64,000 bases of DNA from Candidatus Nomurabacteria bacterium (lineage in GTDB: Bacteria > Patescibacteriota > Minisyncoccia > Phycocordibacterales > UBA9973): the NCBI GenBank assembly GCA_016199805.1, contig JACQGC010000004.1:106908-170907 (forward strand), read 5' to 3'. The notes under the pieces were generated by a model. That model was not told the DNA's origin, searched no databases, and worked only from the letters and a program-made list of their open reading frames with translations. The position numbers and the translations under genes are program-made. Positions 5,250 to 61,219 of the stretch are shown in pieces (the stretch's first letter is position 1; the number at the start of each line of letters is the position of its first letter).

Positions 5250-5299
5250 TTTTGTTTTTACTTTCTACTTTATAAACTTTATAACTTTTTACTTGAAGA
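5250..5299. promoter_or_regulatory. AACTTTATAA-word motif block
   Basis: tactttctactttataaactttataactttttactt. Confidence 0.35.
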
Positions 5300-6535: not shown

Positions 6536-6883
6536 CTAATCCAGAGTTTTAATAAGACCTGATAATAGCTTAGAAATTTCTAGAGTTAAATCATACATTT
6601 TCTTAAAATCTCGTTCTGTAATGTATTTTAACTCCAAACCTAAGTTTAACATAGATCTGACTTCTCCGGCAGACCCCTTGGATATAAATAGAAAGTTTTT
6701 AAGCTCTTTGTTTGTTCGCCTTTCAAAACCTTCAGCAATGTTGTTCATTATTGAAACTGAAGCTCTTTCTATTTGGTTTTTAAAACTATAGTCTTTACAG
6801 CTCTTAAATACTATATAAACATTAATCGTTAAATCTTTTCCTTTTTGCCAAGATATTATTTCCTCAAATTTTTCTATTCGCAT
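6536..6883 (-). CDS. Four-helix-bundle protein (TIGR02436-like; former 23S rRNA intervening-sequence protein family)
   Basis: 115 aa; NIAEGFERRTNKELKNFLFISKGSAGEVRSML motif is characteristic of this family. Confidence 0.7.
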   Translation of the reverse strand: MRIEKFEEIISWQKGKDLTINVYIVFKSCKDYSFKNQIERASVSIMNNIAEGFERRTNKELKNFLFISKGSAGEVRSMLNLGLELKYITERDFKKMYDLTLEISKLLSGLIKTLD

Positions 6884-6930
6884 TTTACTTGATGACTTTA
6901 TGAACTTTTTACTTTATAACTGGACCACTC
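6884..6930. promoter_or_regulatory. AACTTTATAA-word motif block
   Basis: tgactttatgaactttttactttataact. Confidence 0.35.
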
Positions 6931-10519: not shown

Positions 10520-10535
10520 TTTATAACTAACCCCC
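10498..10535. promoter_or_regulatory. AACTTTATAA-word motif block
   Basis: ttaactttacaaactttaaaacttttcactttataact. Confidence 0.35.
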
Positions 10536-14002: not shown

Positions 14003-14090
14003 AGCGATTGATATTATCCTTTTGTGTTTTTGCCAGATATTTTTAATAATGGGTTAATTATAACAACAATATAAATGTAAAGCAAAAAAC

Positions 14091-14168
14091 AACCCCCTAA
14101 ATCCCCCTTATCAGGGGGACTCCTGAATTTTTCCTCCCCTGACAAGGGGAGGCTAGGAGGGGTTGTAT
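14091..14168. repeat. Type A GC-rich double-hairpin element (CCCCCTTATCAGGGGGA + CCTCCCCTGACAAGGGGAGG), overlapping the ksgA 3' end
   Basis: aaccccctaaatcccccttatcagggggactcctgaatttttcctcccctgacaaggggaggctaggaggggttg. Confidence 0.55.
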
Positions 14169-16627: not shown

Positions 16628-18661
16628 TTATAGGTATATTGTCTTCAGTAAATTTTTTTCTCCTTCTTTTTCAAATAAATCTCCCGGAATATCCGAAATA
16701 AATTCCGATGGCGCATTTATATTTCTTGACCCGAAAATGGTGCGGAAGTTTGCAAATGACAAAAACAATTTTTCCTTGGCGCGGGTGATGGCCACGTAAA
16801 AAAGCCTGCGCTCCTCTTCCCTATCTTCGCCTGTCTGCGTCTCATTGTGCCTTTGGTGCGGGAAAAGTCCGTCTTCTAGACCAGTCACAAAAACGTATTT
16901 AAATTCAAGGCCTTTTGACGCATGCACAGTCATTAGTTTAATTGAGTTTGTTTCTTTTTTCTTCTCCTGATTTATCATTATACTGTCTTGGTCGGAAGCA
17001 AGTGAAGCATCCTCTAAAAGCTTTTCAATTCCTGCTCCATTTACCAAATTATCGTATTTGAGGGCGAGGGTGGCGAGCTCTTTTATGTTCTCCAGTCTTT
17101 CCATATCTTCTTCGGTGCCACTAGAAAGTTCCAACTCGATGCCGGATTTTTTGACCACGAATTTTATCACCTCGCTCGTTTTTGCTTCTCCAATTTTTTC
17201 TTTTATTTCTTCCAGTATTTTATAAAAATTTTCAACTTTTACGCGCACTTTTATCGGCAGAGTTTCTTTTTCTCCGGCAAAAATTTTCGCCAAGGTCACT
17301 TTGCCTATGCCGCGCGCCGGAAAGTTAATTATTCTTTTTATATCCGACAAACTCTCCGGGTTCAAGGCCGCGCGCAGGTACGCGAGCGTATCTTTTATTT
17401 CTTTTCTTTCAAAAAATTTAACACCCAAAACTTGGTAAGGAATATTGTAGCGGAGCATAGCTTCTTCGAGCGCGCGCGATTGAAAATTTGCGCGGTACAG
17501 AACGGCTATATTAGATGGGGAAAAGGATTCTGCTTTTGCGGGGTCGCTGTCTGGGGCTTCTGCCCCAGCGCTCCCTCTCGGCTCGTCAGCCTGCGAGAGA
17601 CCCCGCGAAAGCAAATCCATTCCCCCATCCAGAATTTCCAAAATCTTTGTCGCCACGAAATCCGCTTCGTCATTTTCATCGAGCGCTTCGTACAGACCTA
17701 TCTTCTCGCCGACGATGTTGTCGGTAAATAAATTTTTGTCGGGTCTGAATTTATTTTTTTTGATTATTTCGTTGGCGGCTTCCAAAATATTTTTCGTGGA
17801 GCGGTAATTTTGTTCAAGCAGAACTATTTTCGCGTTCGGATAATCTTTTTCAAAACTCAAAATATTCTTCAGGTTGGCTCCGCGCCAGGAATATATATTT
17901 TGGTCGGCATCGCCCACCACGCAGATGTTTTTGCGTTCATTCAGAAGTAGTTTGGACATCATATATTGCACTTCGTTGGTGTCTTGGTACTCGTCGATGT
18001 GTATATATTCCCATTTCTCCTGGTAAATCTTCCGTATTTCAGCGTTGTCCTGCAAGAGTTTTGTGGCTTTCAGAAGTAAATCGTCAAAATCGAGTGAATT
18101 CTCTTTCATTTTTTGTTTCTCGTATAAATTCCATACCTGCGCCACTATTTTACCCAGAGTGCTGGTGCTTTGAGTTTCGGCATATTCCGCCAAATGGGTA
18201 AATTTTCCCTTCTCGCGGGAAATAATATTTTTTATTTTCTTCGGGTCATATTGTTTGGGGTCGATGCCGAGCTCTTTTATTATTTCTTTTATCATCGAGG
18301 TGGCGTCGCTTTCATCCAGAATAGTGAAATATTTTGTCAGGCCCAAAAGCCGCGCGTTTTCTTTTATTATGTAAACTCCGAGCGAGTGAAAAGTGCTGAC
18401 AAAGGGAATTTTGTCCTGGCCCTGGGTGTTTTTCTCTATTTCGGCAATTATTCTCTCCCGCATTTCCTTGGCGGCTTTATTGGTGAAAGTTACTGCCAAA
18501 ATTTTCTCCGGTGCGACTCCGTTTTTGATTAAGTTTACTATTCTGTGAGTGATAGTCTTGGTTTTTCCAGCGCCAGCCCCGGCCACTATCAAAATAGGCC
18601 CTGCCATATGCAAAGCCGCCTCTTTCTGCTCTTTATTTAAGCCCTTCAGGTGCTCGTCCAT
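16628..18661 (-). CDS. UvrD/PcrA/Rep-family ATP-dependent DNA helicase (with in-frame GC-rich insertion)
   Basis: 677 aa; Walker A AGAGAGKTKT, DEYQDTN helicase motif II, C-terminal VITRAKEKLFLS motif. Confidence 0.85.
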   Translation of the reverse strand: MDEHLKGLNKEQKEAALHMAGPILIVAGAGAGKTKTITHRIVNLIKNGVAPEKILAVTFTNKAAKEMRERIIAEIEKNTQGQDKIPFVSTFHSLGVYIIKENARLLGLTKYFTILDESDATSMIKEIIKELGIDPKQYDPKKIKNIISREKGKFTHLAEYAETQSTSTLGKIVAQVWNLYEKQKMKENSLDFDDLLLKATKLLQDNAEIRKIYQEKWEYIHIDEYQDTNEVQYMMSKLLLNERKNICVVGDADQNIYSWRGANLKNILSFEKDYPNAKIVLLEQNYRSTKNILEAANEIIKKNKFRPDKNLFTDNIVGEKIGLYEALDENDEADFVATKILEILDGGMDLLSRGLSQADEPRGSAGAEAPDSDPAKAESFSPSNIAVLYRANFQSRALEEAMLRYNIPYQVLGVKFFERKEIKDTLAYLRAALNPESLSDIKRIINFPARGIGKVTLAKIFAGEKETLPIKVRVKVENFYKILEEIKEKIGEAKTSEVIKFVVKKSGIELELSSGTEEDMERLENIKELATLALKYDNLVNGAGIEKLLEDASLASDQDSIMINQEKKKETNSIKLMTVHASKGLEFKYVFVTGLEDGLFPHQRHNETQTGEDREEERRLFYVAITRAKEKLFLSFANFRTIFGSRNINAPSEFISDIPGDLFEKEGEKNLLKTIYL
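17536..17612. repeat. In-frame GC-rich palindromic insert within the UvrD-family helicase gene
   Basis: ggggcttctgccccag and ctctcggctcgtcagcctgcgagag hairpins; encodes LSQADEPRGSAGAEAPDSDPAKAES. Confidence 0.5.
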
Positions 18662-18676
18662 AATGTAATACTAACA

Positions 18677-18754
18677 CAACCCCCTAAATCCCCCTTATCA
18701 GGGGGACTCCTGAATTTCTCCTCCCTTGATAAGGGGAGGTAGGGAGGGGTTGTA
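18677..18754. repeat. Type A GC-rich double-hairpin element copy
   Basis: caaccccctaaatcccccttatcagggggactcctgaatttctcctcccttgataaggggaggtagggaggggttg. Confidence 0.55.
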
Positions 18755-18758
18755 TTTT

Positions 18759-19853
18759 TTATTTCTGCTCCGGCAATTTAATTCCAAAAGCTTCTGCTTC
18801 GTCTGGCGATATCATTTTCCTCTCGCCAGGAAACAATCTTTTCCCGGCGGCGGTAGTTTCCATGTGCCCATCGGAAAATATTCTGGTTACCATTTCGGAA
18901 CCATCAGTTAGTGGTAAAGTCCGAATAAACATCCTCTCACCTTTTTCATCAACTGATTCAGTGAATTGGTCTTTTTCGTGTTTTGCATTTTCCTTGGCGC
19001 GTTCTTTTAATAATTCTTCATAAGACTTTGGCTTGGCTGTTTCTGGTTTTTTTACTGTTTCCACTTTTTTAGTGGGAGTTTCAATCTTATCCTTTTTCTT
19101 TGAAGCAGTTTTTTCCGGCGCGCTGCTTGTAATTTTGTCTTTGTCGTTTGGGTTTAAATGCGCCCTTTTTATTGACTCATCGTACACCCAGCCACCCACA
19201 GCTACTCCGGCTACAGCAGCGAGCGCAATCCATCGTTTTTTTAATGAACGCCAAAACCCTCTCGGGCGTTCTTCCTCATATTCTTCGTCTTTATCCTCTA
19301 TGTGTGAAGTAGTAGGCGGGATATTTATTATTACTGGAGGTGGTGGAGTATTGGGTGTTGGCGGAACAGGAGGTAAAGGCGGAAGTACTTCTGGGTTTAT
19401 TCCTAAAGGAGCCGAAATGGCGAGTCCTTGGGTTTGTTCAGCCTCACTAGGTGTTGGTTTTGTATATCCTTGTTCTAGCATATTCATTGCCTCGTCCAAT
19501 AATTCCTGCTCAGTTTTTTGCGCAATCGGACCTGTGGGTGCAGTGTCTTTTTGGGGTTCAGGTGGCAAAGGCTTGGGCGTAATCCGTCCAGTAGGCGCGG
19601 TGTCTGGTGTTGTGGGCGCATAAAGTGGTATCGATACACCACCCTTCCAACGACCCGTCGTCGTGCCGTCCCAATCAAAACCTTCCTTGCTTCCATCTGC
19701 ATAAATTCTTTCAGTCAACACCCCCTTGGCATCATAGTGTTCGGTGTATTCAATGTCTCCACGAGTGAATTTTTTCCAAACCAAACGACCATTCTCATAA
19801 TGTTCTGTTGGCGTATCTTGTGGCTCTCCTGGTTTTGGTTCTCCTGATTCCAT
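18759..19853 (-). CDS. Pro-rich single-pass membrane protein with N-terminal MORN-like repeats
   Basis: 364 aa; YENGRLVWKKF / YDAKGVLTERIYADGSKEGF repeats; PPxP-rich linker; one TM (WIALAAVAGVAVGGWVY); Lys-rich C-terminus. Confidence 0.5.
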   Translation of the reverse strand: MESGEPKPGEPQDTPTEHYENGRLVWKKFTRGDIEYTEHYDAKGVLTERIYADGSKEGFDWDGTTTGRWKGGVSIPLYAPTTPDTAPTGRITPKPLPPEPQKDTAPTGPIAQKTEQELLDEAMNMLEQGYTKPTPSEAEQTQGLAISAPLGINPEVLPPLPPVPPTPNTPPPPVIINIPPTTSHIEDKDEEYEEERPRGFWRSLKKRWIALAAVAGVAVGGWVYDESIKRAHLNPNDKDKITSSAPEKTASKKKDKIETPTKKVETVKKPETAKPKSYEELLKERAKENAKHEKDQFTESVDEKGERMFIRTLPLTDGSEMVTRIFSDGHMETTAAGKRLFPGERKMISPDEAEAFGIKLPEQK

Positions 19854-31059: not shown

Positions 31060-31842
31060 ATGCGTATAGGTATTTTTGATTCGGGGTTGGGCGGGCTAAT
31101 TGTCGCCCGGGCTGTGCAAAAGGCGATGCCTGAATATGACTATATTTACCTAGGGGACACAAAAAGATTGCCTTATGGGAACAAAACCCAAAATGAAATT
31201 TATAAAAATACTATTCAGGCGCTTCGGTATTTATTTGAAAAAGATTGCGTTTTGGTGGTAATCGCTTGCAACACAGCATCCTCCCAGGCTTTGCGTAGGG
31301 TGCAACAAGAATGGTTACCAAAATCAAAATATTTTGACAGAAAAGTTTTGGGGGTAATCCGCCCGACAGTGGAGATGGTGGAAAAGGCCAGAAACATTGG
31401 GTTGATTGGAACATTGCGCACAGTAGACTCCACGGCGTATTTGCAAGAACTGCAAAAAATAAACAAAAATATAAAGTTGCTCGCCAAAGCTACTCCAAAA
31501 CTTGTATCTATGGTTGAGTCTGGAAAGTACGAAGATGAAATTTTAAAAAATTATTTGGTTCCTTTTAAAAATGTGGAAATTTTAATTCTCGGCTGTACGC
31601 ATTTTGGTATGCTAAAAAAAGAAATACAAAATATTCTCGGGAAGAAAATAAAAATTATCGCGCAAGAAGATATTTTGCCGGGAAAACTAAAAAGCTACTT
31701 GGCAAAACATAAAGAGATAACAAAAAAATTGGGAAAAAGTAAGAAATTTGAAATTTTGGTGACAAAATCAAGCAGGCGTTACGAAAAATTATCCCGCGAA
31801 TGGTTCGGAGCGAAAACAAAACCGAAACTAATCAATCTCTAG
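31060..31842 (+). CDS. murI: Glutamate racemase
   Basis: IGIFDSGLGGL and VIACNTAS motifs. Confidence 0.85.
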   Translation: MRIGIFDSGLGGLIVARAVQKAMPEYDYIYLGDTKRLPYGNKTQNEIYKNTIQALRYLFEKDCVLVVIACNTASSQALRRVQQEWLPKSKYFDRKVLGVIRPTVEMVEKARNIGLIGTLRTVDSTAYLQELQKINKNIKLLAKATPKLVSMVESGKYEDEILKNYLVPFKNVEILILGCTHFGMLKKEIQNILGKKIKIIAQEDILPGKLKSYLAKHKEITKKLGKSKKFEILVTKSSRRYEKLSREWFGAKTKPKLINL

Positions 31843-31883
31843 GCCTCACCCCTGGCCCCTCTCCAGAGTACTGGCGAGGGGAA
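31843..31883. terminator. GC-rich palindromic element type B (CCTCACCCCTGGCCCCTCTCCAGAGTACTGGCGAGGGGAA); bidirectional terminator-like between convergent murI and xth
   Basis: Stem CCCCTCTCCAG/CTGGCGAGGGG; three further copies at 32710, 34177 and 56702. Confidence 0.5.
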
Positions 31884-32685: not shown

Positions 32686-32709
32686 TAGTTTATTTTATCA
32701 CAAATTCAG

Positions 32710-32750
32710 CCTCACCCCCTGCCCCCTCTCCAGATTACTGGCGAGGGGAG
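32710..32750. repeat. GC-rich palindromic element type B copy
   Basis: cctcaccccctgccccctctccagattactggcgaggggag. Confidence 0.5.
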
Positions 32751-33819: not shown

Positions 33820-33897
33820 TGAAAGTTATCAAGTTCATAAAGTAATCAAGGGAATACTTTAAAAACTTTCTACTTTATAAACTTTAAGAACTAAATT
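33820..33897. promoter_or_regulatory. AACTTTATAA-word motif block (both orientations) upstream of rpsO
   Basis: gaaagttatcaagttcataaagtaatc...aaaactttctactttataaactttaag. Confidence 0.35.
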
Positions 33898-34162: not shown

Positions 34163-34176
34163 ACCTATTTCGCCCG

Positions 34177-34217
34177 GCCTCACCCCCGACCCCTCTCCAG
34201 ATTACTGGAGAGGGGAA
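34177..34217 (+). terminator. Type B GC palindrome acting as rpsO terminator
   Basis: cctcacccccgacccctctccagattactggagaggggaaaag, 15 nt after the rpsO stop. Confidence 0.5.
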
Positions 34218-35026: not shown

Positions 35027-35071
35027 GCGCCGCGTTTAATCGACGGTTACGCGGCATGATTTCGCAAAATC
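35027..35071 (+). promoter_or_regulatory. Start-proximal conserved element E (GC hairpin + ATGATTTCGCAAAATCA) directly 5' of the pnp start
   Basis: gccgcgtttaatcgacggttacgcggcATGATTTCGCAAAATCatg; near-identical copies at 61171-61219 and 59911-59955, variants at 51933-51979 and 50287-50343. Confidence 0.5.
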
Positions 35072-37219
35072 ATGTACAAAAAAGAATATAGTGTAGAGAT
35101 TGGAGGAAAAACTTTAACTGCCATGTTTACGGATTTGGCAGAGCAAGCTCACGGTTCGGTCTTATTAAAATACGGCGAGACTATCGTCCTCGCGACTGCT
35201 TGCATGTCGAAAGACAGACAAGCCGGGCTTGGATATTTTAATCTGACGGTGGACTACGTGGAGAAATTTTACGCAGCCGGAAAAATCCTGGGCTCACGTT
35301 TTGTGCGCCGGGAAGGGAAGCCATCCGAAGAAGCGATATTGGGCAGCAGAGTTATAGACAGAACTTTGCGTCCGCTTTTTGACCAATCCATCCGCCATGC
35401 AGTGCAGGTCATCGTTACAGTATTGTCTGTAGATGATAACGATCCCACGATTTTAGCGGTGAACGCCGCGTCCCTCGCTTTGGCTGTCTCCAATATTCCT
35501 TGGAATGGACCGGTAGGTTGCGTGAGAATTGGCAAGTATGCAGATAAAGACAACAGCGATACTTTAAAAATTAATCCGGCGCAATCTTTACGCTTGGGCG
35601 AAATGGATTACAAGTTTGACCTGACAGTTTGCGGCAAAGATGGAAATATAAATATGATTGAAGCGGCTGCGCACCAGAGCACCGAAGATGAACTGGAAAA
35701 AGCCTTCGGGGTAGCTAGCGCGGAAATAACCAAACTGGAAAATTTCCAGAAAAATATCGTCAAAGAAATCGGTAAAGAAAAAAGAGTGATAGAAAAAGAG
35801 ATAATCAATCCGGAGTCTACGGCATTGTTCAACGAAAATATCTTGCCCAAAATGGAGACGGCAATTTTCAACGAAGTCGGCAAAAAACATATTGATGAAT
35901 TGCACAATGTTTGGAACAAAATGGTAGCGGAAAAATATCCCGACCGAAAAGATTTTGCAGTTGAGGATGATTTATTTGATGACACCGAAAACGACATCTT
36001 ACACAAAAAAGCGATTGAAGAAAATTTGCGAGCTGATGGCCGAAAAATGGATGAGGTGCGTGATTTGTACGCGCAAGCCGGTGGACTTTCTCCTGTTCTA
36101 CACGGCTCTGGAATTTTTTATCGTGGGGGCACACACGTTCTTTCCGTATTAACTTTGGGAGGACCGGACGACAGAAATTTGGTGGATGGATTGCAACTGA
36201 AAACAGAAAAAAGATTTATGCACCATTACAACTTTCCGCCGTACTCGGCCGGAGAAACCGGACGCGCGGGATTTACAAATCGTCGCGAAGTCGGGCACGG
36301 AGCACTTGCTGAAAAAGCATTGCTTATGGTGTTGCCGCCAGTGACAGAATTTCCGTACACAATCCGAATCGTTTCTGAATCGATGGCCTCGAATGGTTCC
36401 ACTTCACAAGCTTCCATCTGCGCATCTATTCTCGCGCTCATGGATGGTGGAGTGCCCATCCTTGCCCCGGTCGCGGGTATCGCCATGGGATTGATGATGA
36501 CGACATCCGCCAAAGGCGGACAAGAATATAAAGTGCTGACCGACATCCAGGGACCTGAAGACCATTACGGTGATATGGATTTTAAAATTGCCGGTACACG
36601 TGAAGGGGTCACGGCTATCCAACTGGATGTGAAAGTAGAAGGTGTGCCGATAAAAATATTGGGCGAAGCCATGAAGCAAGCCAAAGGTGCGCGCGTAACC
36701 ATCATCGACAGAATTGAAAAAGAAATTCCAAAACCTCGGGCCAATATTTCTCCAAACGCTCCAGAAATCTTAATCATCAAAATCAATCCGGATAAGATAG
36801 GTATGGTTATCGGTGGTGGCGGAAAAACCATCAAAGACATTCAAGAGAGAACCGGGGCAACGATAACAATTGACGACGACGGAACTATCTATTTCACCGG
36901 TAAAGACGGTTCGGCCGGAAAAGCCAAAGCAATAGTGGAAGAAATGACCCATGAGTTTAAAATAGGCGAAGTTTTGCAAGGAAAAATAGTAAAAATGGCT
37001 GATTTTGGAGCCTTTGTTGAGCTCAATCCCTTTACCGATGGCATGGTGCATATATCCGAAATGGCCCCGTTCCGCGTGGAAAGAGTGTCCGACCTGGTAA
37101 AAGAAGGCATGATTGTGCCAGTCAAAATAATAAATATAGACGCGGAAAGAGGCAAAATCGGCCTATCTATCAAAGAAGCCGACAAAGATTTCTTCTCCGC
37201 TCACATCAAAAAGGCGTAA
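35072..37219 (+). CDS. pnp: Polynucleotide phosphorylase
   Basis: 715 aa; two RNase PH domains, KH (IGMVIGGGGKTIKDI) and S1 (GEVLQGKIVKMADFGAFVEL) domains. Confidence 0.9.
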   Translation: MYKKEYSVEIGGKTLTAMFTDLAEQAHGSVLLKYGETIVLATACMSKDRQAGLGYFNLTVDYVEKFYAAGKILGSRFVRREGKPSEEAILGSRVIDRTLRPLFDQSIRHAVQVIVTVLSVDDNDPTILAVNAASLALAVSNIPWNGPVGCVRIGKYADKDNSDTLKINPAQSLRLGEMDYKFDLTVCGKDGNINMIEAAAHQSTEDELEKAFGVASAEITKLENFQKNIVKEIGKEKRVIEKEIINPESTALFNENILPKMETAIFNEVGKKHIDELHNVWNKMVAEKYPDRKDFAVEDDLFDDTENDILHKKAIEENLRADGRKMDEVRDLYAQAGGLSPVLHGSGIFYRGGTHVLSVLTLGGPDDRNLVDGLQLKTEKRFMHHYNFPPYSAGETGRAGFTNRREVGHGALAEKALLMVLPPVTEFPYTIRIVSESMASNGSTSQASICASILALMDGGVPILAPVAGIAMGLMMTTSAKGGQEYKVLTDIQGPEDHYGDMDFKIAGTREGVTAIQLDVKVEGVPIKILGEAMKQAKGARVTIIDRIEKEIPKPRANISPNAPEILIIKINPDKIGMVIGGGGKTIKDIQERTGATITIDDDGTIYFTGKDGSAGKAKAIVEEMTHEFKIGEVLQGKIVKMADFGAFVELNPFTDGMVHISEMAPFRVERVSDLVKEGMIVPVKIINIDAERGKIGLSIKEADKDFFSAHIKKA

Positions 37220-48893: not shown

Positions 48894-48977
48894 ACCTGGA
48901 CTTTCTCTTCATATATGTTATCGTAAATACGAATTTAAACTTGTCCCCCATACACAATTGGGGAGTATGGAGTATAT

Positions 48978-49253
48978 ATGTACACAAAACAAAGCATTTT
49001 GAACTTCCTTACCCGCACAAGGCAGCACGAGGAAGTCCAAGAAGATGTGAGGAGGAGAATGGAGGTTATCGCCAAGGGAAAGAACAATTTCCCCGAAGGG
49101 GACATCTACTATGTCCTGGAAAATCCCATCCTCGTGCGGGCCTTTCTCGAGTGGGTCGCCGAGTCCTACCTCCTCTCGGTTTCGGCGAGGGAAGCAGAAC
49201 GCCAGGCGGAGGCTTGGCACGAGGCTTTCGCTTACAAATACGCAATCACATAG
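48978..49253 (+). CDS. Hypothetical 91-aa protein in GC-rich island
   Basis: ORF followed 9 nt later by a strong hairpin (ccgcccgggtggag/ctccacccgggcg) plus T-tract. Confidence 0.4.
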   Translation: MYTKQSILNFLTRTRQHEEVQEDVRRRMEVIAKGKNNFPEGDIYYVLENPILVRAFLEWVAESYLLSVSAREAERQAEAWHEAFAYKYAIT

Positions 49254-49261
49254 TTAGTCAT

Positions 49262-49300
49262 CGCACCCGCCCGGGTGGAGGAAGCTCCACCCGGGCGCTT
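49262..49300 (+). terminator. Rho-independent terminator
   Basis: cacccgcccgggtggaggaagctccacccgggcg followed by cttcctatttta. Confidence 0.6.
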
Positions 49301-49390
49301 CCTATTTTATATACAATTTTATCAACTAGCTTTTATTTTTTTATGGGTTCATAATAAATTCATAACTTAGTCCTTTGAAAGGGGATCAAG

Positions 49391-49723
49391 ATGAAAGAAG
49401 GCAGAACCATACTGTGGTTCGGATACGAAGTTGTGCTGATAGCGTTTGTGTGCGAAATCGGCATAAACGCTTACTGGTGGGCTCTGCGAAATGGCAAGAA
49501 AGAAATGTTGTCATTTCGCACATCCGGGAACGAAACAGACGACCACTCGTATCAGCACAAGCCATCTAAAAAGTGTTCTTCTACCAAAAAGTCACGCCAA
49601 TGGCTTCAGGTGAAAAAGCGGACTGCCAAAGTCCGTTCCAAGAAGAACAGCAAGAAGAAGCGGACCGTCGCCCAAGTCCGCAAAGACAAGAAACGGCTCG
49701 CCCGCCAACGTCTCCGCAAATAA
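49391..49723 (+). CDS. Hypothetical 110-aa protein: one TM helix followed by an extremely Lys/Arg-rich tail
   Basis: ILWFGYEVVLIAFVCEIGINAYWWAL then KKCSSTKKSRQW...KKNSKKKRT...RKDKKRLARQRLRK. Confidence 0.4.
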   Translation: MKEGRTILWFGYEVVLIAFVCEIGINAYWWALRNGKKEMLSFRTSGNETDDHSYQHKPSKKCSSTKKSRQWLQVKKRTAKVRSKKNSKKKRTVAQVRKDKKRLARQRLRK

Positions 49724-49740
49724 CTCCCGCCATCATCGTA

Positions 49741-49780
49741 TCGTATCAAGGCGGTCGCTTCCCCAGCGACCGCCTCTTCT
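49741..49780 (+). terminator. Rho-independent terminator
   Basis: aggcggtcgcttccccagcgaccgcct followed by cttctagtttt. Confidence 0.6.
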
Positions 49781-49854
49781 AGTTTTAGTGCGGCTAGCTT
49801 TTTATTTTTATAGGTGCATACTTGATTTGATACAGTTCCTCAGGTGAGGTTTCT

Positions 49855-50076
49855 ATGCGCTCCGGACACAAGGAATGTTTCTGCCCCGTTTGCGAAAAGA
49901 AGACATTCTTCTATCTTTACGCAGCCGGTTGGGCCTGTATGAATCTAGAGCTCTCACACCCCTGGAGGGAGGGGAAGGAGATCAAACCGATTCCAGTCAT
50001 CGTCATAGAGGTGGCGACAATAGCCCATCGCGATAACGTGGTGGAGCTTCTCCCAAGGAGGAAGAAGGCCGGATGA
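49855..50076 (+). CDS. Hypothetical 73-aa protein with CPVC Zn-ribbon-like motif
   Basis: HKECFCPVCEKK; followed by hairpin gtgaggggg...ccccctcac at 50093-50125. Confidence 0.3.
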   Translation: MRSGHKECFCPVCEKKTFFYLYAAGWACMNLELSHPWREGKEIKPIPVIVIEVATIAHRDNVVELLPRRKKAG

Positions 50077-50092
50077 ACTATCGAACAGTGTG

Positions 50093-50125
50093 AGGGGGCC
50101 GACGCAACTCGACCCCCTCACAAAA
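50093..50125 (+). terminator. Rho-independent terminator-like hairpin
   Basis: gtgagggggccgacgcaactcgaccccctcac followed by aaaataatcttt. Confidence 0.45.
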
Positions 50126-50224
50126 TAATCTTTAAATTGGACTAGGTAATACCTAGTTTTTTTATTGCTTGAGCCTGCCCCGTATCAAGTTTGGCTTTGG
50201 TTCGGGGTTATCCACAGTTTGCAT

Positions 50225-50253
50225 TTGACAGTGAACGAGCGTTCACTTATACT
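50225..50253 (+). promoter_or_regulatory. Sigma70-type promoter TTGACA-17-TATACT with embedded LexA (Cheo-type) box GAAC-N4-GTTC
   Basis: ttgacaGTGAACGAGCGTTCACttatact; box at 50232-50245 lies in the spacer. Confidence 0.65.
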
Positions 50254-50286
50254 AACTAAGTCGTAGTTTATAAGTTTAATTAAAAT

Positions 50287-50343
50287 TTACGTCGCGCTTC
50301 GTCGCATTTCAATGGAGAATGCGACATGATTCAGCAGAATCAA
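50287..50343 (+). promoter_or_regulatory. Variant copy of start-proximal element E overlapping the start of the SOS-box-regulated small ORF
   Basis: acgtcgcgcttcgtcgcatttcaatggagaatgcgacATGATTCAGCAGAATCAA. Confidence 0.4.
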
Positions 50344-50571
50344 TTGCGCGACGCGATTTTGCAAAATCGCATGTCTCAATCACAATATTTAAAAATGTTA
50401 GAAAAAGAGATTCAGAAGATTAATCAAAAGATTGATTTGAAGATTCTTCAAGGTGAAGCATATTTCAAGGAAGCCAGGGACCACAAGTTGCTCCTCAAAA
50501 AAGTCCGCTATCATACCCGCCGCAGTTTTTTCAGCCGGGTTTTTCCGGGATTGGCAAAATTTTCTTTCTAA
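50326..50571 (+). CDS. Small coiled-coil hypothetical protein co-transcribed upstream of lexA, under the LexA-box promoter
   Basis: 81 aa (MIQQNQLRDAILQNR...); 6-nt gap to lexA. Confidence 0.5.
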   Translation: MIQQNQLRDAILQNRMSQSQYLKMLEKEIQKINQKIDLKILQGEAYFKEARDHKLLLKKVRYHTRRSFFSRVFPGLAKFSF

Positions 50572-50577
50572 AAAATA

Positions 50578-51156
50578 ATGAGAAACGAATATCAAAATAA
50601 ATTAGAAACTTTCTACGGCGACAATAAACGGATGCCGACTTATTCCGAGATGCTGAAACTTTTCGGTTTCAAGTCCAAGAACGCCGTGGCCAGAGTGGTG
50701 GAGAAACTCATAGATGCCGGACTGGTGGCCAAAGACCATTTGGGCAGATTGATACCAAGTCAAACCTTTTCGGAAATGACCACCAATGTGCCTATGCTGG
50801 GCTATGTCACCGCCGGTTTCCCGGCGACAGTGGAAGAGGAACTGGTCGACACGGTGAACCTGGACGATATGCTGATAAAAAACAAACCGCTGACATATAT
50901 GCTCGAAGTGGACGGAGACTCGATGATAGATGCGCACATAGAAAAAGGGGATATGGTTCTCGTAGAAAAAGCCACCACAGCCAAAGATATGCAAATAGTC
51001 ATAGCCGAAGTAGACGGGGAGTTTACCATGAAATATTTTAGAAATAAAAATGGGAAATCTTGGCTCGAACCGGCCAATAAAAACTATAAGCCGATATATC
51101 CGGAGCATTCTTTAAACATCAACGCCGTGGTGAAGGCAGTTATTAGAAAATATTAA
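50578..51156 (+). CDS. lexA: LexA repressor (S24 peptidase)
   Basis: N-terminal wHTH (MPTYSEMLKLFGFKSKNAVARVVEKLIDAGLV); cleavage region AG/VTAG; S24 catalytic GDSM and K (EVDGDSMIDAHI...MQIVIAEV). Confidence 0.8.
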   Translation: MRNEYQNKLETFYGDNKRMPTYSEMLKLFGFKSKNAVARVVEKLIDAGLVAKDHLGRLIPSQTFSEMTTNVPMLGYVTAGFPATVEEELVDTVNLDDMLIKNKPLTYMLEVDGDSMIDAHIEKGDMVLVEKATTAKDMQIVIAEVDGEFTMKYFRNKNGKSWLEPANKNYKPIYPEHSLNINAVVKAVIRKY

Positions 51157-51162
51157 AATTTT

Positions 51163-51600
51163 ATGCATCTTTTCTGGGAAAATCTAATTGAAGTTTCGAT
51201 TAAAATAATACCCATACTGGTCGCAGCGCTGGTGGGATTTCTATTTGGTGTATTGAAAGACCACAAAAATACAATTTTTAATAAAAAACTGGCCGTATAT
51301 TCTCAAATAATATCGAGCATCAACAAACATGAATATATGACGGAAAATTTCAACAAGATGGATTTGATAGACCTCTTTGCCCCGGCTCGCTTGTTGGGTA
51401 GCAGGAAGCTGGAATTTTACTTAAGGGAATATTATGCCTTGGTTGTGGAATATTTGCATATTGATGAAATCTCCGCAAGGGAAACCAAAAGCGATGAAAT
51501 CTCGGAAGTGGTGATGAACATAGAGCAGATAATGCGGGAAGAATTGGGCAACCGGAGAACCTTATCTGCAAAAGAAATATTTAAGCATGTGTATAGATAA
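51163..51600 (+). CDS. Hypothetical protein with N-terminal TM
   Basis: 145 aa ORF; 7 nt after lexA. Confidence 0.45.
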   Translation: MHLFWENLIEVSIKIIPILVAALVGFLFGVLKDHKNTIFNKKLAVYSQIISSINKHEYMTENFNKMDLIDLFAPARLLGSRKLEFYLREYYALVVEYLHIDEISARETKSDEISEVVMNIEQIMREELGNRRTLSAKEIFKHVYR

Positions 51601-51603
51601 AAA

Positions 51604-51640
51604 CAAAAAACACCCTAGTGGGTGTTTTTTGTTTTTCATT
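51604..51640. terminator. Bidirectional rho-independent terminator (A-tract, hairpin acaccctagtgggtgt, T-tract)
   Basis: aaaaaacaccctagtgggtgttttttgttttt between the convergent 51163-51600 and hup genes. Confidence 0.65.
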
Positions 51641-51659
51641 CTTTTCGCGCGAAAAGAAT

Positions 51660-51932
51660 TTATGCAACCATATCTTTCAAACCTTTTGCAGCTCGGAATT
51701 TTGGAACTTTCTTTGCGGCAACTTTGACTTGCTCTCCAGTCTTTGGATTGCGAGCCATGCGGGCAGCTCGGGCCTTTACGGAGAAGATTCCGAAGCCAGC
51801 TATTGAAACTTCACCTCCCTTTTTCAAGGTTGCAATGATAGCGTCAAATAGGCTGTCTACGATTTCCTCTGCTTGCACTTTCGTGCCACCCAACTTTCCG
51901 TGTACTAATTCAGCTAATGCTTGTTTATTCAT
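51660..51932 (-). CDS. hup: HU-family DNA-binding protein
   Basis: 90 aa; GFGIFSVKARAARMARNPKTGEQVKV arm motif. Confidence 0.85.
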   Translation of the reverse strand: MNKQALAELVHGKLGGTKVQAEEIVDSLFDAIIATLKKGGEVSIAGFGIFSVKARAARMARNPKTGEQVKVAAKKVPKFRAAKGLKDMVA

Positions 51933-51979
51933 ATGATTCTGCGAATCACGTCGCGCAAGTCCTTTCGGCGCGACGCAAC
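51933..51979 (-). promoter_or_regulatory. Variant copy of start-proximal element E in the hup leader (GC hairpin + GATTCGCAGAATCAT + ATG)
   Basis: On the mRNA strand: gcgtcgcgccgaaaggacttgcgcgacgtGATTCGCAGAATCATatg. Confidence 0.4.
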
Positions 51980-52087
51980 TTAAAAGTTAATTTAATAATC
52001 TGTTCGACCTTTTAACCCTTATATTTGCTACCACCTTATTATATAGCAAGGGTTTTTTAAGGCAAGGGGTCGAAAAATATAACTTTT

Positions 52088-53614
52088 TTAGCGGGCGTAT
52101 TCGATAATACGTGTTTCGCGTATCATGGTGACCTTGATTTCACCAGGGTATTTGAGTTCTTGTTCTATTTTTATGGCTATATCGCGGGCCATGAGCTTGG
52201 CTTCGGCGTCGGAAATCTTTTCCGGGGTGACAAATATGCGGATTTCACGTCCGGCTTGCAAGGCATACGATTTCTCGACAGCCGGGAAGGTGTTTACCAG
52301 CGCTTCCAATTCTTGCAAGCGTTTCAAGTAGTTTTCTACGGAGTCTCGGCGAGCGCCAGGGCGGCCACCAGAGATGGAGTCGGCTGTCTGCACGATAATG
52401 GATTCGATGGTTTCATAAGGGTAGTCTTCGTGATGGCTTTTCATCGCGGTTATTATGCGCGGGTCGGCGCCGAACTTTTGCAATATGCGCATACCTATCT
52501 CTATGTGTGTGCCTTGTACTTCATGGTCGAGGGCTTTACCGATGTCGTGCACCAGGGCTCCGGCTTTGGCGATGGCCACGTCGGCGCCGAGTTCTTCGGC
52601 CAGCATGCCGGCAATGTGCGCCATTTCAATGGAATGCTGGAGAACATTTTGCCCGTAACTGGTGCGGAAATATAATCGTCCAATGATGGCCACGATGCGC
52701 GGGTCGAAATTGAATATACCGCATTCGTAAACCGCTTGTTCTCCTTTTTCCTTGATGATTTTATTTATTTCCTCTTTGGCTTTTTCCACCAGCTCCTCAA
52801 TCTTGGCGGGCTGAATGCGTCCATCCAAAATCAAATTTTCAAGCGCCAAACGGGCCACTTGCCTGCGGATAGGGTCAAAAGAAGAAATGACGATAGAGCC
52901 CGGAGTGTCATCCACGATGAGTTCCACGCCGGAAGCTCGCTCAAAAGCTCGGATGTTACGGCCTTCCTTTCCGATAATTTTACCCTTGATTTCGTTGTTG
53001 GGTATGGAAACGACGGTGGTCATGAGCTCGGAAGCCGTGCTGGAAGACAGGCGTTGGATAGAAGTAGCCAAAATATCTTTAGCTCTACGGTCCAATTTTT
53101 CCTCATTATTATTTTCGAGCTTTTGTATCTTCACCAAGATGTCTTCCTCGTACTTTTTCTCCACGTCTTTCAGAAGTTCGTCTTTTGCTTCTACCTCGGT
53201 CAGCTTGGCTACGCGTTCCAATTCCAATATCTTGTCCGCTTCGGCCTTGGAAACTCTCTCCTGGATCTTTTTAATTTCTTCCACCTTCGTCTTTATATTT
53301 TCTACCTCTTTGTCCACCTCCATCTGGCGCACGTCCAAAAACTCATCCTTCTTGATAAGTCTTTTTTCCGTCTCTTTGAACTCGTGTTCTTTCTTCTTCT
53401 CTTCGTCGCGAAGTTCCGCCAGTTTTGTCTCGGAAGTTTTCTTGGCTTCGTCCACAATGTTTTGCGCTTCTTCCTTGGCGCCGACCATCATCTGCTTGAT
53501 GTCTATCTCGATAGACCTTCTCTTCCCGAGAGCGATAATCAGACGCAGATAGTAACCTATGCCTACGCCCAAGAGGAGCACCGCGACCCCGACTAAAATT
53601 ATTATTATACTCAT
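52088..53614 (-). CDS. rny: Ribonuclease Y
   Basis: N-terminal TM, long coiled coil, KH (GKIIGKEGRNIRAFE), HD domain (HSIEMAH...LVHDIGKA). Confidence 0.85.
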   Translation of the reverse strand: MSIIIILVGVAVLLLGVGIGYYLRLIIALGKRRSIEIDIKQMMVGAKEEAQNIVDEAKKTSETKLAELRDEEKKKEHEFKETEKRLIKKDEFLDVRQMEVDKEVENIKTKVEEIKKIQERVSKAEADKILELERVAKLTEVEAKDELLKDVEKKYEEDILVKIQKLENNNEEKLDRRAKDILATSIQRLSSSTASELMTTVVSIPNNEIKGKIIGKEGRNIRAFERASGVELIVDDTPGSIVISSFDPIRRQVARLALENLILDGRIQPAKIEELVEKAKEEINKIIKEKGEQAVYECGIFNFDPRIVAIIGRLYFRTSYGQNVLQHSIEMAHIAGMLAEELGADVAIAKAGALVHDIGKALDHEVQGTHIEIGMRILQKFGADPRIITAMKSHHEDYPYETIESIIVQTADSISGGRPGARRDSVENYLKRLQELEALVNTFPAVEKSYALQAGREIRIFVTPEKISDAEAKLMARDIAIKIEQELKYPGEIKVTMIRETRIIEYAR

Positions 53615-56701: not shown

Positions 56702-56835
56702 GCCTCACCCCTGACCCCTCTCCAGAGTACTGGCGAGGGGGAATACAACCCCCTGAATCCCCCTTGTCAGGGGGACTGAAATCCACGAAGTATTTTTCCT
56801 CCCCTGACAAGGGGAGGCCGGGAGGGGTTGTATTT
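56702..56835. repeat. Composite GC-rich palindromic element (type B followed by type A) between clpP and tig
   Basis: cctcacccctgacccctctccagagtactggcgaggggg...cccccttgtcaggggga...cctcccctgacaaggggagg...gggaggggttgta. Confidence 0.55.
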
Positions 56836-56841
56836 CTTCTT

Positions 56842-57891
56842 TTATTGATTCTCCAAAAACTGGAAGATTTTTTCGTTGGTGAGGACGTTCTCGGCGTGCG
56901 TTTCCGCCCTTTGCGGGTCCGCGTCTTTATATTGTTCCAATATCATGGCGACTTCTTGCGCCACTTGTTCTTTGTCCGCTTCTATTTTTTCTTCCTTGGC
57001 TATTTCATTCAAAATGAGCGCCAGCTTGGCTTTTTTCTCGGCATCAGCACGAAAGTCTTTTTGTAAATCTTCTTTGGTTTTATTCAAGTGCTTCAAATAG
57101 TCCTCGAATTTCAGGCCCATCTGGGTGATGTCGGACTCCATGCGGTACAAAATTTTGTCCAGTTCAATATTCACCAAGATTTCCGGCAACTCCAAAGTGC
57201 TTTCGTCTATTATTTTCTCAATAATTTTCAGACGAGTTTTTTCTTTGAGGGCATTTTCTTTTTCCAGTTTGATATTGGCCTTCAATTTTTCCTTGAAGTC
57301 TGCCACGTTCTCGAATGGGCCAAGAGCCTGTACAAAATCATCGTTGAATTCCGGAAGTTCAGGTTCAAGATGAACTTCGCCTTCTTTGTGTTCATGCTCG
57401 GCGATGTTTACTTTGGGAGCGCGGGATTTACGGATATCCATTACGGTATTTTCCACGTCTTCGGGAGTGACTTCCACGTTTTTCTCTTCGTCGGTGATGG
57501 AGGAGATCATTTCCTTGGCCACTTTTTTATAATCGGGAAGTTTTATCCCCGGCATAACGGCGGTTTTTATTTTGAAGCCGAGAGGGTTTTTGCGCGCGAG
57601 TTTGATGATGGAAATTTCCGGTCGGCTGATGGCATCTATTTTTTCATCGGCGATAATTTTCGGATAATATTCTGCCAGAGCCATCTCGGCCATTTCTTCC
57701 AAGATACTGATTTCCGGAACATTGGACAGTAAAACACTTTCCGGAACTTTACCCGGCCTAAATCCGTCCAGTTTTACATTTTCGCCTATCTTTTTAAGCG
57801 CAGCAGAATAATAAGATTCGAATTTCTCTGCGTCTATTTCACCTTCAATTTCTACTTCGCTATTGGGAAGTTTCTTGACTGTTATTTGCAT
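56842..57891 (-). CDS. tig: Trigger factor (short form, 349 aa)
   Basis: N-terminal ribosome-binding domain MQITVKKLPNSEVEIEGEIDAE...GFRPGKVP. Confidence 0.75.
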   Translation of the reverse strand: MQITVKKLPNSEVEIEGEIDAEKFESYYSAALKKIGENVKLDGFRPGKVPESVLLSNVPEISILEEMAEMALAEYYPKIIADEKIDAISRPEISIIKLARKNPLGFKIKTAVMPGIKLPDYKKVAKEMISSITDEEKNVEVTPEDVENTVMDIRKSRAPKVNIAEHEHKEGEVHLEPELPEFNDDFVQALGPFENVADFKEKLKANIKLEKENALKEKTRLKIIEKIIDESTLELPEILVNIELDKILYRMESDITQMGLKFEDYLKHLNKTKEDLQKDFRADAEKKAKLALILNEIAKEEKIEADKEQVAQEVAMILEQYKDADPQRAETHAENVLTNEKIFQFLENQ

Positions 57892-57895
57892 ATAT

Positions 57896-59908
57896 TTATA
57901 TCAATAAAATAACTATGAGTAAGGCCACGATGTTCAAGATTTTTATCATCGGGTTGATGGCTGGGCCGGCAGTATCTTTGTATGGGTCGCCGACGGTGTC
58001 TCCGGTCACAGCGGCCTTGTGGGCATCACTGCCTTTGCCTCCATGGTTTCCACCTTCAATGTATTTCTTGGCATTGTCCCAAGCGCCTCCGCCGGAGGTC
58101 ATAGAGATAGCCACGAAGAGCCCGGTCACGATTGAGCCGACGAGCAGTCCGCCCAACACAACCAAACCTTTTTCTTTTCCAAAAATTAAAACGACGAGAA
58201 TCGGAGCAAGTACCGGAATCAAAGCTGGTAATATCATTTGCTTGATGGCGGCGCCGGTGATGATGGAAACGGCCTTGGCGTAATCCGGTTTTGCTTTTCC
58301 TTCCATGATGCCTTTTATTTCTCTGAATTGTCGGCGGATTTCTTCCACGACTTTTCCGGCAGTTTTTCCCACGGCTTCCATGCAGAGCGCGCCGAAATAA
58401 TATGGCAAGAGTCCTCCCAAGAAGAGTCCGACGATGACATAAGGATTACTCAAATCAAAAGTGATACTTTTCCCGGCCTTGATAATTTCTTCAGTGTAAG
58501 AAGCGAAGAGCACAAGAGCGGCAAGTCCGGCAGAACCGATGGCGTAACCCTTGGTCACAGCCTTGGTGGTGTTGCCTACGGCATCGAGTGGGTCGGTGAC
58601 ATCGCGAACCTCTTTTGGCAATTCGGCCATTTCGGCGATACCTCCAGCGTTGTCGGTGATGGGCCCATAGGCATCGATAGCTACAATGATTCCGGTCATC
58701 GAGAGCATGCTCATAGCGGCTACGGCGATACCATAAAGTCCGCCGTATGTGTAACTAATTAATATTCCAACAACGATAGTAATCAAAGGCAGAGCGGTAG
58801 ATTTCATGGAAATAGCCAAACCTTGGATGACGTTTGTGCCGTGTCCGGATACGGATGCTTCCGCGATAGATTTAACAGGATAGTATTTTGTAGAAGTAAA
58901 ATATTCGGTGATGACTACGAGTGCTCCGGTGACCAAAAGGCCAACCAGAGAACAAATAAATAAATCCATTACGGAATATTTTCCATTTCCGGACATAAGC
59001 ATATTGGTGATAGGGTAGAAAGCGATAGCGGCGATGACTCCAGCGGCAATGAGGCCTTTGTACAAAGCCCCCATGATATTTTGTTTTTTACCGAGGCGTA
59101 CAAACCAAGTGCCGATGATGGAGGCGAAGATTGCCATCCCGCCGATAGCCAGAGGATAGAGAACTGCATTTTCAAAACCGGCAAAAAGAAGTGAACCTAA
59201 AAGCATTGTCGCCACAGAAGTAACTGCGTAAGTTTCAAAAAGGTCCGCGGCCATGCCAGCACAGTCTCCTACATTGTCTCCTACATTGTCGGCGATAACT
59301 CCCGGATTTCTTGGGTCATCTTCGGGAATTCCGGCTTCAAGTTTACCCACCAAATCTGCGCCGACATCGGCTGCTTTAGTGAAAATTCCACCACCGAGTC
59401 TGGCAAATACGGAAATGAGTGATGCGCCGAAACCAAGTCCGACGAGAGCGGTAACGTCATGAGTAATAGCATAAAAAGCCGATACGCCGAGAAGAGCCAG
59501 TCCGACTACCAAGAGTCCGGTCACAGTTCCTCCTTTAAAAGCTAGAGAAAGTGCTTCATTTATTCCACCACGAGCAGCTTCAGCGGTGCGTACGTTTGCG
59601 CGGACAGATACGTTCATACCGATGTATCCGGCCAAAGCAGAGAAGACAGCGCCGACTAAAAATCCGAAAGCCATTGTCCAGCCGAGCTTGGGAACGAGTC
59701 CGACGATGAAGAAGAGAACCACGGCAATCATGCCGATGGTTTTATATTGTTTATTTAAATAAGCGCCCGCGCCCTCTTGGATAGCTTTGGCTATTTCTTG
59801 CATCCGCGCATTCCCGGCGCTCTTTTTTAAAATAGACTTTGCTAAAAACAAACCGTAAACAATAGACAGAACAGCACTAATTATTGCAAACAATAAAAAT
59901 GTATTCAT
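57896..59908 (-). CDS. hppA: Membrane-bound proton/sodium-translocating pyrophosphatase
   Basis: [22 protein letters not shown] and other V-PPase motifs, about 15 TM. Start set at MNTFLL (59908); the track ORF extends through element E via TTG/ATG. Confidence 0.85.
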
Positions 59909-59910
59909 TT

Positions 59911-59955
59911 GATTTTGCGAAATCATGCCGCGCAATCGTCCATTAAAGCGCGGCG
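59911..59955 (-). promoter_or_regulatory. Start-proximal element E copy at hppA
   Basis: mRNA strand: cgccgcgctttaatggacgattgcgcggcATGATTTCGCAAAATCAAatgaat. Confidence 0.5.
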
Positions 59956-61170: not shown

Positions 61171-61219
61171 GATTTGATTTTGCGAAATCATGCCGCGTAA
61201 CCGTCGATTAAACGCGGCG
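61171..61219 (-). promoter_or_regulatory. Start-proximal element E copy at nusA
   Basis: mRNA strand: cgccgcgtttaatcgacggttacgcggcATGATTTCGCAAAATCAAatcacATGtta; 45/45 identity to the pnp copy over the core. Confidence 0.5.

Follow-up and report, generated by a model that had tools for sequence, protein, structure and literature searches.

A predicted LexA operator and a candidate DnaA box in the conserved promoter of a small-protein gene and lexA in Candidatus Nomurabacteria

Introduction

In Pseudomonas, sulA stands in an operon with lexA, and in Bacillus subtilis Sda is a DnaA-activated checkpoint protein of replication stress. The SOS division inhibitors of Gram-positive rods such as Bacillus, Listeria and Mycobacterium, and that of Staphylococcus, are products of genes neighbouring lexA, and synteny with lexA was the clue by which SosA was identified (PMC6851548). 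Here, we describe a locus in which an unannotated small gene directly precedes lexA, in a 64,000-nucleotide (nt) stretch (hereafter the window) of the genome of a Candidatus Nomurabacteria bacterium (Patescibacteria, or Candidate Phyla Radiation, CPR). We regard it as moderately likely, as one part of the joint explanation developed below, that this locus is an autoregulated lexA operon.

The promoter of the locus resembles autoregulated lexA promoters of the Cheo type, as GAAC-N4-GTTC lies over the lexA promoter and the LexA protein is canonical in its AG cleavage site and Ser/Lys dyad. It differs from them in its TGAACG...CGTTCA flanks, in a palindrome of 16-18 bp that exactly fills the promoter spacer, in having lexA as the second gene, and in carrying a DnaA box within the promoter. 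DnaA-regulated promoters (nrdAB, dnaA and uvrB in Escherichia coli, sda and dnaA in B. subtilis) similarly have a consensus box near the core promoter, but the compact promoter described here (~46 bp) pairs just one such box with a predicted LexA operator.

As for the small gene, it may be compared with lexA-linked genes for SOS division inhibitors, since it is small, lineage-specific, located in the same operon as lexA or divergent from it, and placed under a putative LexA operator. Unlike SulA, YneA, ChiZ, SosA and SidA, however, its product is predicted to be a cytoplasmic hairpin with an amphipathic tail, with no SulA fold, LysM domain or transmembrane segment. Sda offers another parallel, namely a small helical hairpin (46-66 amino acids, aa, for the two proteins) expressed from a promoter with one or more DnaA boxes and linking replication status to a cell-cycle decision, as is proposed below for the small protein, but the two proteins share no sequence similarity, and Sda targets sporulation kinases, which these bacteria lack, and is not LexA-controlled. 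Finally, YnzC (UPF0291/DUF896; PDB 2HEP and 3BHP), likewise a small helical hairpin whose C-terminal tail is flexible, is encoded in the SOS-regulated yneA-yneB-ynzC operon adjacent to lexA of B. subtilis, but no homology to the small protein is detectable (hhalign probability of 0.2% against the 2HEP sequence).

Results

The locus was compared with 80 related loci (Nomurabacteria/Paceibacterota) obtained from a scan of one genome per GTDB species. Counts out of 81 refer to the window plus these 80 other species, counts out of 80 leave the window aside, and the background for the frequencies of GAAC-N4-GTTC and TTATCCACA is the 632 kb of DNA of the related loci. The main features, all on the plus strand, are the following:

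50208-50216, plus strand: candidate DnaA box TTATCCACA, matching the consensus at 9/9 positions, 8 bp upstream of the -35 hexamer
50225-50230, plus strand: -35 hexamer TTGACA, identical in 80/81 related promoters
50231-50246, plus strand: predicted LexA operator, the 16-bp palindrome GTGAACGAGCGTTCAC, filling the promoter spacer
50248-50253, plus strand: -10 hexamer TATACT, identical in 78/81 related promoters
50260-50370, plus strand: structured 5' leader of ~111 nt, in which GTCG (50260-50263) and an A/T-rich stretch precede two copies, one nested in the other, of a repeat called element E
50371-50571, plus strand: gene for a 66-aa protein of an unannotated family, a predicted helical hairpin with an isoelectric point (pI) of 10.2 and a Phe-rich C-terminal tail
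50578-51156, plus strand: lexA (192 aa), with a putative N-terminal winged-helix domain, a cleavage site at A79-G80 and an S24 domain with S115 and K152

Promoter and LexA operator

The TTGACA-17-TATACT promoter (50225-50253), first pointed out in a sequence-only reading of the window, agrees with the consensus at 11 of 12 positions, outranks any other promoter-like site within 49000-52500 and recurs in all 80 related species. By its sequence, it is a near-consensus promoter of the sigma-70 type, with a spacer of 17 nt in 54 of the 81 sequences and of 18 nt in 27. Inside the spacer, GAACGAGCGTTC (50233-50244) forms a GAAC-N4-GTTC core, which extends to a perfect palindrome of 16 or 18 bp, (A)GTGAACGAGCGTTCAC(T). 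The core is found in 81/81 sequences and the longer GTGAACG-NN-CGTTCAC in 79, the remaining two differing from it at one base. The same reading had proposed a Cheo-type LexA box in the spacer. This holds for the core, but not for the flanks, as the C...G of the Gram-positive (Cheo-type) 14-mer CGAACRNRYGTTYC is replaced by T...A (TGAAC...GTTCA) in all 81 promoters. In its LexA part the locus is unremarkable, the box simply adding a new member, with T...A flanks, to the Gram-positive-type group.

GAAC-N4-GTTC occurs at two sites in the window for 0.93 expected, which is not significant by itself, and elsewhere in the 632 kb of related DNA it was found twice for about eight expected. The window contains no second good LexA box, as its other GAAC-N4-GTTC, at 53378, sits within rny and has imperfect flanks. 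On the sequence comparison, conservation rather than within-window frequency is the decisive evidence for the LexA box. The same promoter and box precede the gene pair in 81/81 sequences, in DNA that is otherwise unalignable (the N8-10 linker, the region upstream and a leader of 50-165 nt), which argues that the promoter motifs are functional. A palindromic operator in lexA's own promoter points to autoregulation by predicted LexA binding, and the small gene of the pair is very probably under LexA control. The proposal that a LexA-operator promoter drives a small unknown gene together with lexA is therefore supported, the pair and the operator being kept in every relative examined.

Neither recA nor uvrA is among the genes of the window or of any related locus examined. 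When metagenomes were searched for perfect copies of the 16-mer flanked by sequence other than lexA, 120 loci came back, mostly high-GC unrelated DNA or hairpin repeats, and no recA. In addition, A(A/G)GTCG lies 6-14 nt 3' of the -10 hexamer in 63 of 80 lexA-operon promoters, against a background of 7.7%; this motif (50258-50263 in the window, and at the same position in loci L002-L081) is at or near the predicted 5' end of the transcript.

Candidate DnaA box

The earlier reading made no mention of a DnaA box, and its presence changes the regulatory picture. TTATCCACA, which conforms to TTWTNCACA, has its sole exact copy of the 64-kb window in this promoter. The box is at the same place in the 81 promoters, exact in 73 and with one mismatch in the rest, and is separated from the -35 hexamer by 9 bp (67 loci), 8 bp (9) or 10 bp (3), the gap being read separately from this tabulation for L071 and L073. 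Elsewhere in the 632 kb of related loci, exact copies are found at chance frequency (9 for 7.5 expected).

One related species, L048, has dnaA-dnaN 2.7 kb upstream of its small/lexA operon, and it is from this species, and not from the window genome, that our evidence on DnaA domain IV comes. Its DnaA is 39% identical to that of E. coli and keeps the domain IV motif RQM...GKDHTTVIH, whose residues are established to read the DnaA box in E. coli DnaA. The dnaA-dnaN spacer of L048 holds GTTATCCACTTATCAACAG, that is, two tandem one-mismatch DnaA boxes. DnaA probably binds the candidate box upstream of the -35 hexamer.

LexA homologues of ~50% identity are also found directly behind the same TTGAC-AGTGAACG..CGTTCAC-TATACT promoter with neither small gene nor DnaA box, on metagenome contigs of 48-59% G+C:

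L133, 2124-2726: lexA without the small gene
L151: lexA without the small gene
L178, 4683-5308: lexA without the small gene

As these two independent cases (L133/L151 and L178) have the same operator and lack the box, the comparison suggests, on a small sample, that the DnaA box goes with the small gene. An exact TTATCCACA is also present in some relatives 17-25 nt upstream of a TTGCG-type -35 hexamer, in the spacer that follows clpP (L028, ~7629; L058, ~7803; L077, 7670 and 7825), where it may mark a second DnaA-controlled promoter. The window has no clpP at that position and no box there.

Distant members of the small-gene family

Close relatives share a wider synteny (comM in 70/80 loci and hup in 63/80), and we therefore also examined distant members, defined as 32-42% identical to the window protein and surrounded by unrelated genes. 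All eight informative distant members adjoin lexA, in three arrangements:

L082: small gene then lexA, the two overlapping by 4 nt; TTATCCACA directly joined to TTGACG and followed by GTAAACGATCGTTCAC and TATACT, with almost no leader
L088, L089/90, L091 and L180: small gene then lexA; DnaA box exact or with one mismatch, LexA box and -10 hexamer
L083: small gene then lexA; the contig ends upstream
L087 and the P0210 contig: lexA then small gene
L084-86: lexA and small gene divergent; exact TTATCCACA in a 220-nt spacer, in which no GAAC-N4-GTTC box was seen

Junctions between the small gene and lexA are of 3-20 nt or overlapping. The predicted LexA operator is also seen in distant members, and the DnaA box is found in L082, L084, L088, L089/90 and L180 and, as a variant, in L091 and L092. 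With these loci included, the gaps between the box and the -35 hexamer are 0, 0, 1, 7, 8-10, 18 and 20 bp; they appear to fall roughly at whole helical turns, in a sample too small to lean on. The divergent spacer of L084 (2780-3000) contains three TAGAAAA direct repeats, which may be a different LexA motif in this lineage.

Gene model of the small protein

The frame of the small gene is open over 50326-50571, with a stop 6 nt before the lexA start. This is the 81-aa ORF (open reading frame) of the sequence-only reading, in which the protein starts at ATG 50326 and GGAG (50314-50317), 8 nt upstream, would serve as ribosome-binding site. We rejected this model, which now appears very improbable. 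Homologues are typically 66 aa long, and their first residue corresponds to M16 of the 81-aa ORF (ATG 50371). Furthermore, an in-frame stop occurs at most 15 codons upstream of the 66-aa ATG in 55 of the 81 loci, and 64 of the 81 have no upstream in-frame start whatever, which excludes the 81-aa form as a conserved product. ATG 50326 also lies in a repeated leader hairpin, and Shine-Dalgarno sequences are hardly used in this genome (2 of the 39 ORFs of at least 200 aa in the window). The ORF is identical to the NCBI hypothetical protein HY311_01180 of Candidatus Nomurabacteria bacterium, and the deposited gene model for the genome is here corrected from 81 aa to a predicted 66 aa. Many of the 39 large ORFs carry a TATAAT-like hexamer 5-10 nt before their ATG, suggesting that leaderless mRNAs are widespread.

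A new small-protein family

We found 591 homologues of the small protein, and an exhaustive profile search gave ~270 clusters at 50% identity, nearly all of them stand-alone proteins of 60-70 aa. M1, N18, I21, D22, Y31 and H38 are invariant in a diverse alignment, and I25, G28 and L41 nearly so. Variability at the three codon positions of the gene is 0.13, 0.065 and 0.36, showing that it is protein-coding and under purifying (protein-level) selection.

The sequence-only reading described the product as a coiled coil; an antiparallel helical hairpin fits better, AlphaFold2 predicting helices at 3-27 and 32-57 (predicted local distance difference test, pLDDT, of 86.8) followed by a low-confidence tail. 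In this model, two amphipathic helices precede a 15-residue tail containing Arg and Lys. The last 14 residues are 22% Phe, and 17 of 35 diverse members have a C-terminal Phe. The hydrophobic moment of the tail is 0.52, against 0.39 for shuffled tails, and is higher than in the latter for 30 of the 35 members. This predicted moment is within the range of the membrane-targeting helices of MinD and FtsA, a resemblance only.

Neither the window sequence nor the 35 diverse members had any match in Pfam, NCBIfam, PHROGs or PADLOC. In particular, there was no Pfam match to SulA (PF03846) for the window protein and the 35 members, and none to Sda (PF08970) at E<=1 in the 35 members. A sequence profile run against the PDB gave only chance matches (influenza HA2 coiled coil, E ~0.5), and Foldseek against the PDB found nothing below E 1, returning only generic hairpins (the SerRS arm, SSV1 D-63, CsoR/FrmR). 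A phage origin was considered and rejected, as no relatives were found in IMG/VR viral contigs. Judged by these searches, the small protein is a new, previously undescribed and unannotated family.

lexA

The identification of a canonical lexA 6 nt after the small ORF proved correct. The protein scores 116.6 bits against NCBIfam TIGR00498 (cut-off of 110.95) over residues 15-191, and its S24 domain matches Pfam Peptidase_S24 (PF00717) with an E of 1.2e-26. A79-G80, S115 and K152 align with A84-G85, S119 and K156 of E. coli LexA. For the winged helix, there is no match to Pfam LexA_DNA_bind at E<=0.1, but the TIGR00498 match begins at residue 15 and the segment aligns with the E. coli helix-turn-helix. 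Conservation of the gene pair, which had been suggested as a check, is complete: lexA lies directly behind the small gene in 80/80 related species, with LexA identities of 60-93%.

Leader and element E

Transcription would start near 50260, judging from the position of the -10 hexamer. The RNA fold of the leader has a free energy of -37.5 kcal/mol (z-score of -2.8), and the 3' part of the leader is element E, a two-hairpin motif of ~49 nt that ends 0-6 nt before start codons. Thirteen base pairs are predicted in element E, five of them with compensatory changes. In the leader of the lexA operon, a second copy is nested within the loop of the first (50290-50373), and further copies precede four other genes of the window:

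50290-50297 paired with 50346-50353, plus strand: outer stem of element E
50300-50346, plus strand: inner copy of element E (covariance-model match of 49.8 bits), containing ATG 50326
50353-50370, plus strand: last hairpin of the leader, abutting ATG 50371 (covariance-model match at 50349-50373)
35028-35076, plus strand: element E before pnp
51930-51975, minus strand: element E before hup
59906-59955, minus strand: element E before hppA
61171-61219, minus strand: element E before nusA

The start of the small gene had been said to overlap a variant of element E. ATG 50326 indeed lies within the nested copy, where it corresponds to the conserved (A/G)TG that separates hairpins 1 and 2 of the inner element, and GGAG 50314-50317 is a variant of the loop of hairpin 1 (ATGGAC), but the conserved start is ATG 50371. 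Only 8 of the 80 relatives have element E in front of the small gene, so that it behaves as a leader cassette of sporadic or mobile nature. Rfam gave no match on the leader or on the 1.3-kb gap upstream of the locus, and has no family for element E.

G+C-rich intergenic hairpin repeats of another kind (CCCCTxxCAGGGG and GGGGAGG types) are scattered through the window, and the same kind is inserted in the small-gene leaders of L037, L045, L049, L050, L064, L074, L076, L079 and L081. Copies in the window are located as follows:

14086-14172: G+C-rich hairpin repeat
18673-18759: G+C-rich hairpin repeat
31842-31883: G+C-rich hairpin repeat
32709-32750: G+C-rich hairpin repeat
34176-34217: G+C-rich hairpin repeat
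56742-56842: G+C-rich hairpin repeat

Genomic setting

The window, of ~42% G+C, encodes ComM, RNase Y, HU, a ClpB-like protein, trigger factor, NusA, PNPase, H+-PPase and a UvrD-like helicase, and also includes a type-IV-secretion-like cluster. The operon is bordered by the following features:

50139-50169, plus strand: terminator-like hairpin, a 9-pair stem GGACTAGGTAATACCTAGTTT then the T-run TTTTATTGCT, closing the upstream transcription unit
51163-51600, plus strand: 145-aa ORF with an N-terminal hydrophobic segment
51599-51636, plus strand: strong hairpin terminator of 17 pairs, common to the convergent hup gene; end of the operon

The 145-aa ORF is probably co-transcribed with lexA, as no terminator lies between them. 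It is weakly similar to the ORF that follows the lexA/small pair in L087 (661-1092; pairwise E of 4e-5). We discarded it as part of the conserved module, because it is absent from all 80 relatives, and its PADLOC match to GajB was considered noise. What follows lexA in the relatives is usually a convergent hup, and otherwise assorted inserted genes such as those for methyltransferases and HAD hydrolases; the site 3' of lexA is an insertion hot spot in these genomes.

Upstream of the locus, a 1.3-kb stretch (48894-50200; 48.6% G+C) separates comM from the DnaA box; in 23 of 70 relatives, the box comes immediately after comM. The stretch has several strong hairpins, its ORFs are all short (91, 110 and 73 aa), and it gave no match in PHROGs, Rfam or, for the 73-aa ORF only, Pfam. 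This stretch is possibly an insertion.

Finally, ACTTTATAAACTTT (AAAGTT-type) repeats stand directly upstream of consecutive minus-strand genes in a TraG-like/T4SS-pilin-like cluster (T4SS, type IV secretion system), where they look like a common leader or promoter motif:

2304-2348: ACTTTATAAACTTT repeats
3350-3394: ACTTTATAAACTTT repeats
5257-5301: ACTTTATAAACTTT repeats
6017-6061: ACTTTATAAACTTT repeats
6877-6921: ACTTTATAAACTTT repeats
10484-10528: ACTTTATAAACTTT repeats
33856-33880: ACTTTATAAACTTT repeats

Discussion

The explanation that best accounts for these observations, and which we favour with moderate confidence, is an autoregulated operon with two inputs, LexA and DnaA, and a small checkpoint effector as its output. 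On the established LexA/RecA pathway, LexA bound to the spacer operator would occlude RNA polymerase. Upon DNA damage, RecA filaments would trigger self-cleavage of LexA at A79-G80 by the S115/K152 dyad, and the promoter would then fire, producing a burst of small protein together with fresh LexA, which would reset the switch. DnaA bound at about -45 to -53 would be a second input reporting replication status, through either activation or repression. The small protein would act as the effector of the circuit, a short-lived checkpoint protein delaying cell division or replication initiation during repair, and its Phe-rich amphipathic C-terminal tail could be a membrane-targeting helix, a proteolysis tag, or both.

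As an SOS output, the small protein would most plausibly be a transient brake on division or initiation, a view that rests on synteny, given the precedents of other lexA-adjacent genes (PMC6851548) and of Sda. The role of SOS effector proposed by the sequence-only reading gains from the constant adjacency to lexA in three arrangements; the suggested analogy with SulA and YneA fares less well, as the protein has neither homology nor shared architecture with SulA, YneA or SosA, and division inhibition would have to be deduced from gene position. That it is specifically a division inhibitor is accordingly put forward only tentatively. It is rather doubtful, though conceivable, that we are dealing with a first CPR checkpoint effector in the form of a cytoplasmic, membrane-tethered family of hairpin inhibitors gated by a LexA and DnaA promoter.

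Several observations speak against the two-input checkpoint operon. The small protein has a generic helical hairpin fold without significant structural match, no detectable similarity to known division inhibitors, Sda or YnzC, and neither a LysM domain nor a transmembrane segment, the latter being present in YneA, SosA, SidA and ChiZ. No LexA box was found at the UvrD/PcrA-like gene of the window (16628-18661), and in L084 the DnaA box is present while no recognisable GAAC-N4-GTTC box was found. In addition, an activating role for DnaA is not obviously needed, because the promoter is already near-consensus. Finally, the two genes are tightly coupled in their operon, with an overlap of 4 nt in L082, and this would be just as compatible with a protein that physically associates with LexA.

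This last possibility, in which the small protein binds to or modulates LexA or RecA instead of being a checkpoint effector, seems unlikely to us. The protein might serve as co-repressor or anti-repressor, or modulate the self-cleavage of LexA, being produced in a constant ratio to the latter. Such a role would agree with a small gene that always adjoins lexA, mostly in one operon with very short or overlapping junctions, with the strongly basic character of the protein (pI 10.2), and with the conserved polar cluster N18, D22, Y31 and H38, which resembles an interaction surface near the tip of the hairpin. However, related LexA proteins of ~50% identity use the same operator without the small gene (L133, L178), and the divergent (L084-86) and reversed (L087, P0210) arrangements show that it is co-regulation, and not translational coupling, which is conserved. 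A target on the replication side can also be envisaged: the small protein would act on DnaA or on replication initiation with feedback, the DnaA box being the primary control and LexA a secondary one. The box travels with the small gene, as it is retained in the divergent L084 and absent from lexA-only promoters, the operon of L048 is 2.7 kb from dnaA-dnaN, and Sda provides the precedent of a DnaA-induced small helical-hairpin checkpoint protein. Yet neither Sda nor any of the known regulators of DnaA is homologous to the protein, there is a single box only, and the sample of lexA-only promoters amounts to two, so that we consider this alternative improbable.

Doubt may also bear on the box itself, as TTATCCACA could instead be bound by another regulator (possibly the small protein itself) or act as an upstream promoter element. 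The box is single, without any cluster, and its distance to the -35 hexamer varies among distant members, as would suit such a site. Against this, the motif matches the universal DnaA consensus at 9/9 positions and is kept down to ~32% protein identity, while the DnaA of this lineage, as seen in L048, keeps the base-contacting residues and has near-consensus boxes in the dnaA-dnaN spacer; an identity other than a DnaA site thus has a low probability. We retain the operon with LexA and DnaA inputs as the explanation to be preferred. Sanchez-Osuna, Barbe and Erill reportedly studied the SOS network of Patescibacteria (Environ Microbiol, 2017). A full-text literature search on both box names did not find a DnaA box and a LexA operator in one lineage-conserved promoter, although an earlier description in work on the Patescibacteria SOS response is possible.

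Patescibacteria/CPR account for much of bacterial diversity; hardly any of them have been cultured, their genomes are minimal, and the coordination of replication, repair and division in these bacteria is very poorly understood. The locus described here offers a tractable promoter of ~46 bp that apparently combines two universal regulators, DnaA and LexA, with the 66-aa protein as the obvious candidate output of the circuit, and it defines a family (~270 clusters at 50% identity) in which N18, D22, Y31 and H38 do not vary. If DnaA truly acts here, the promoter would clearly exemplify the convergence of DnaA and LexA on a single control region. Should the proposed effector role also be true, the family would add a new, non-membrane-spanning class to SOS checkpoint effectors, and replication, repair and division would be coupled through it in ultra-small episymbiotic bacteria.

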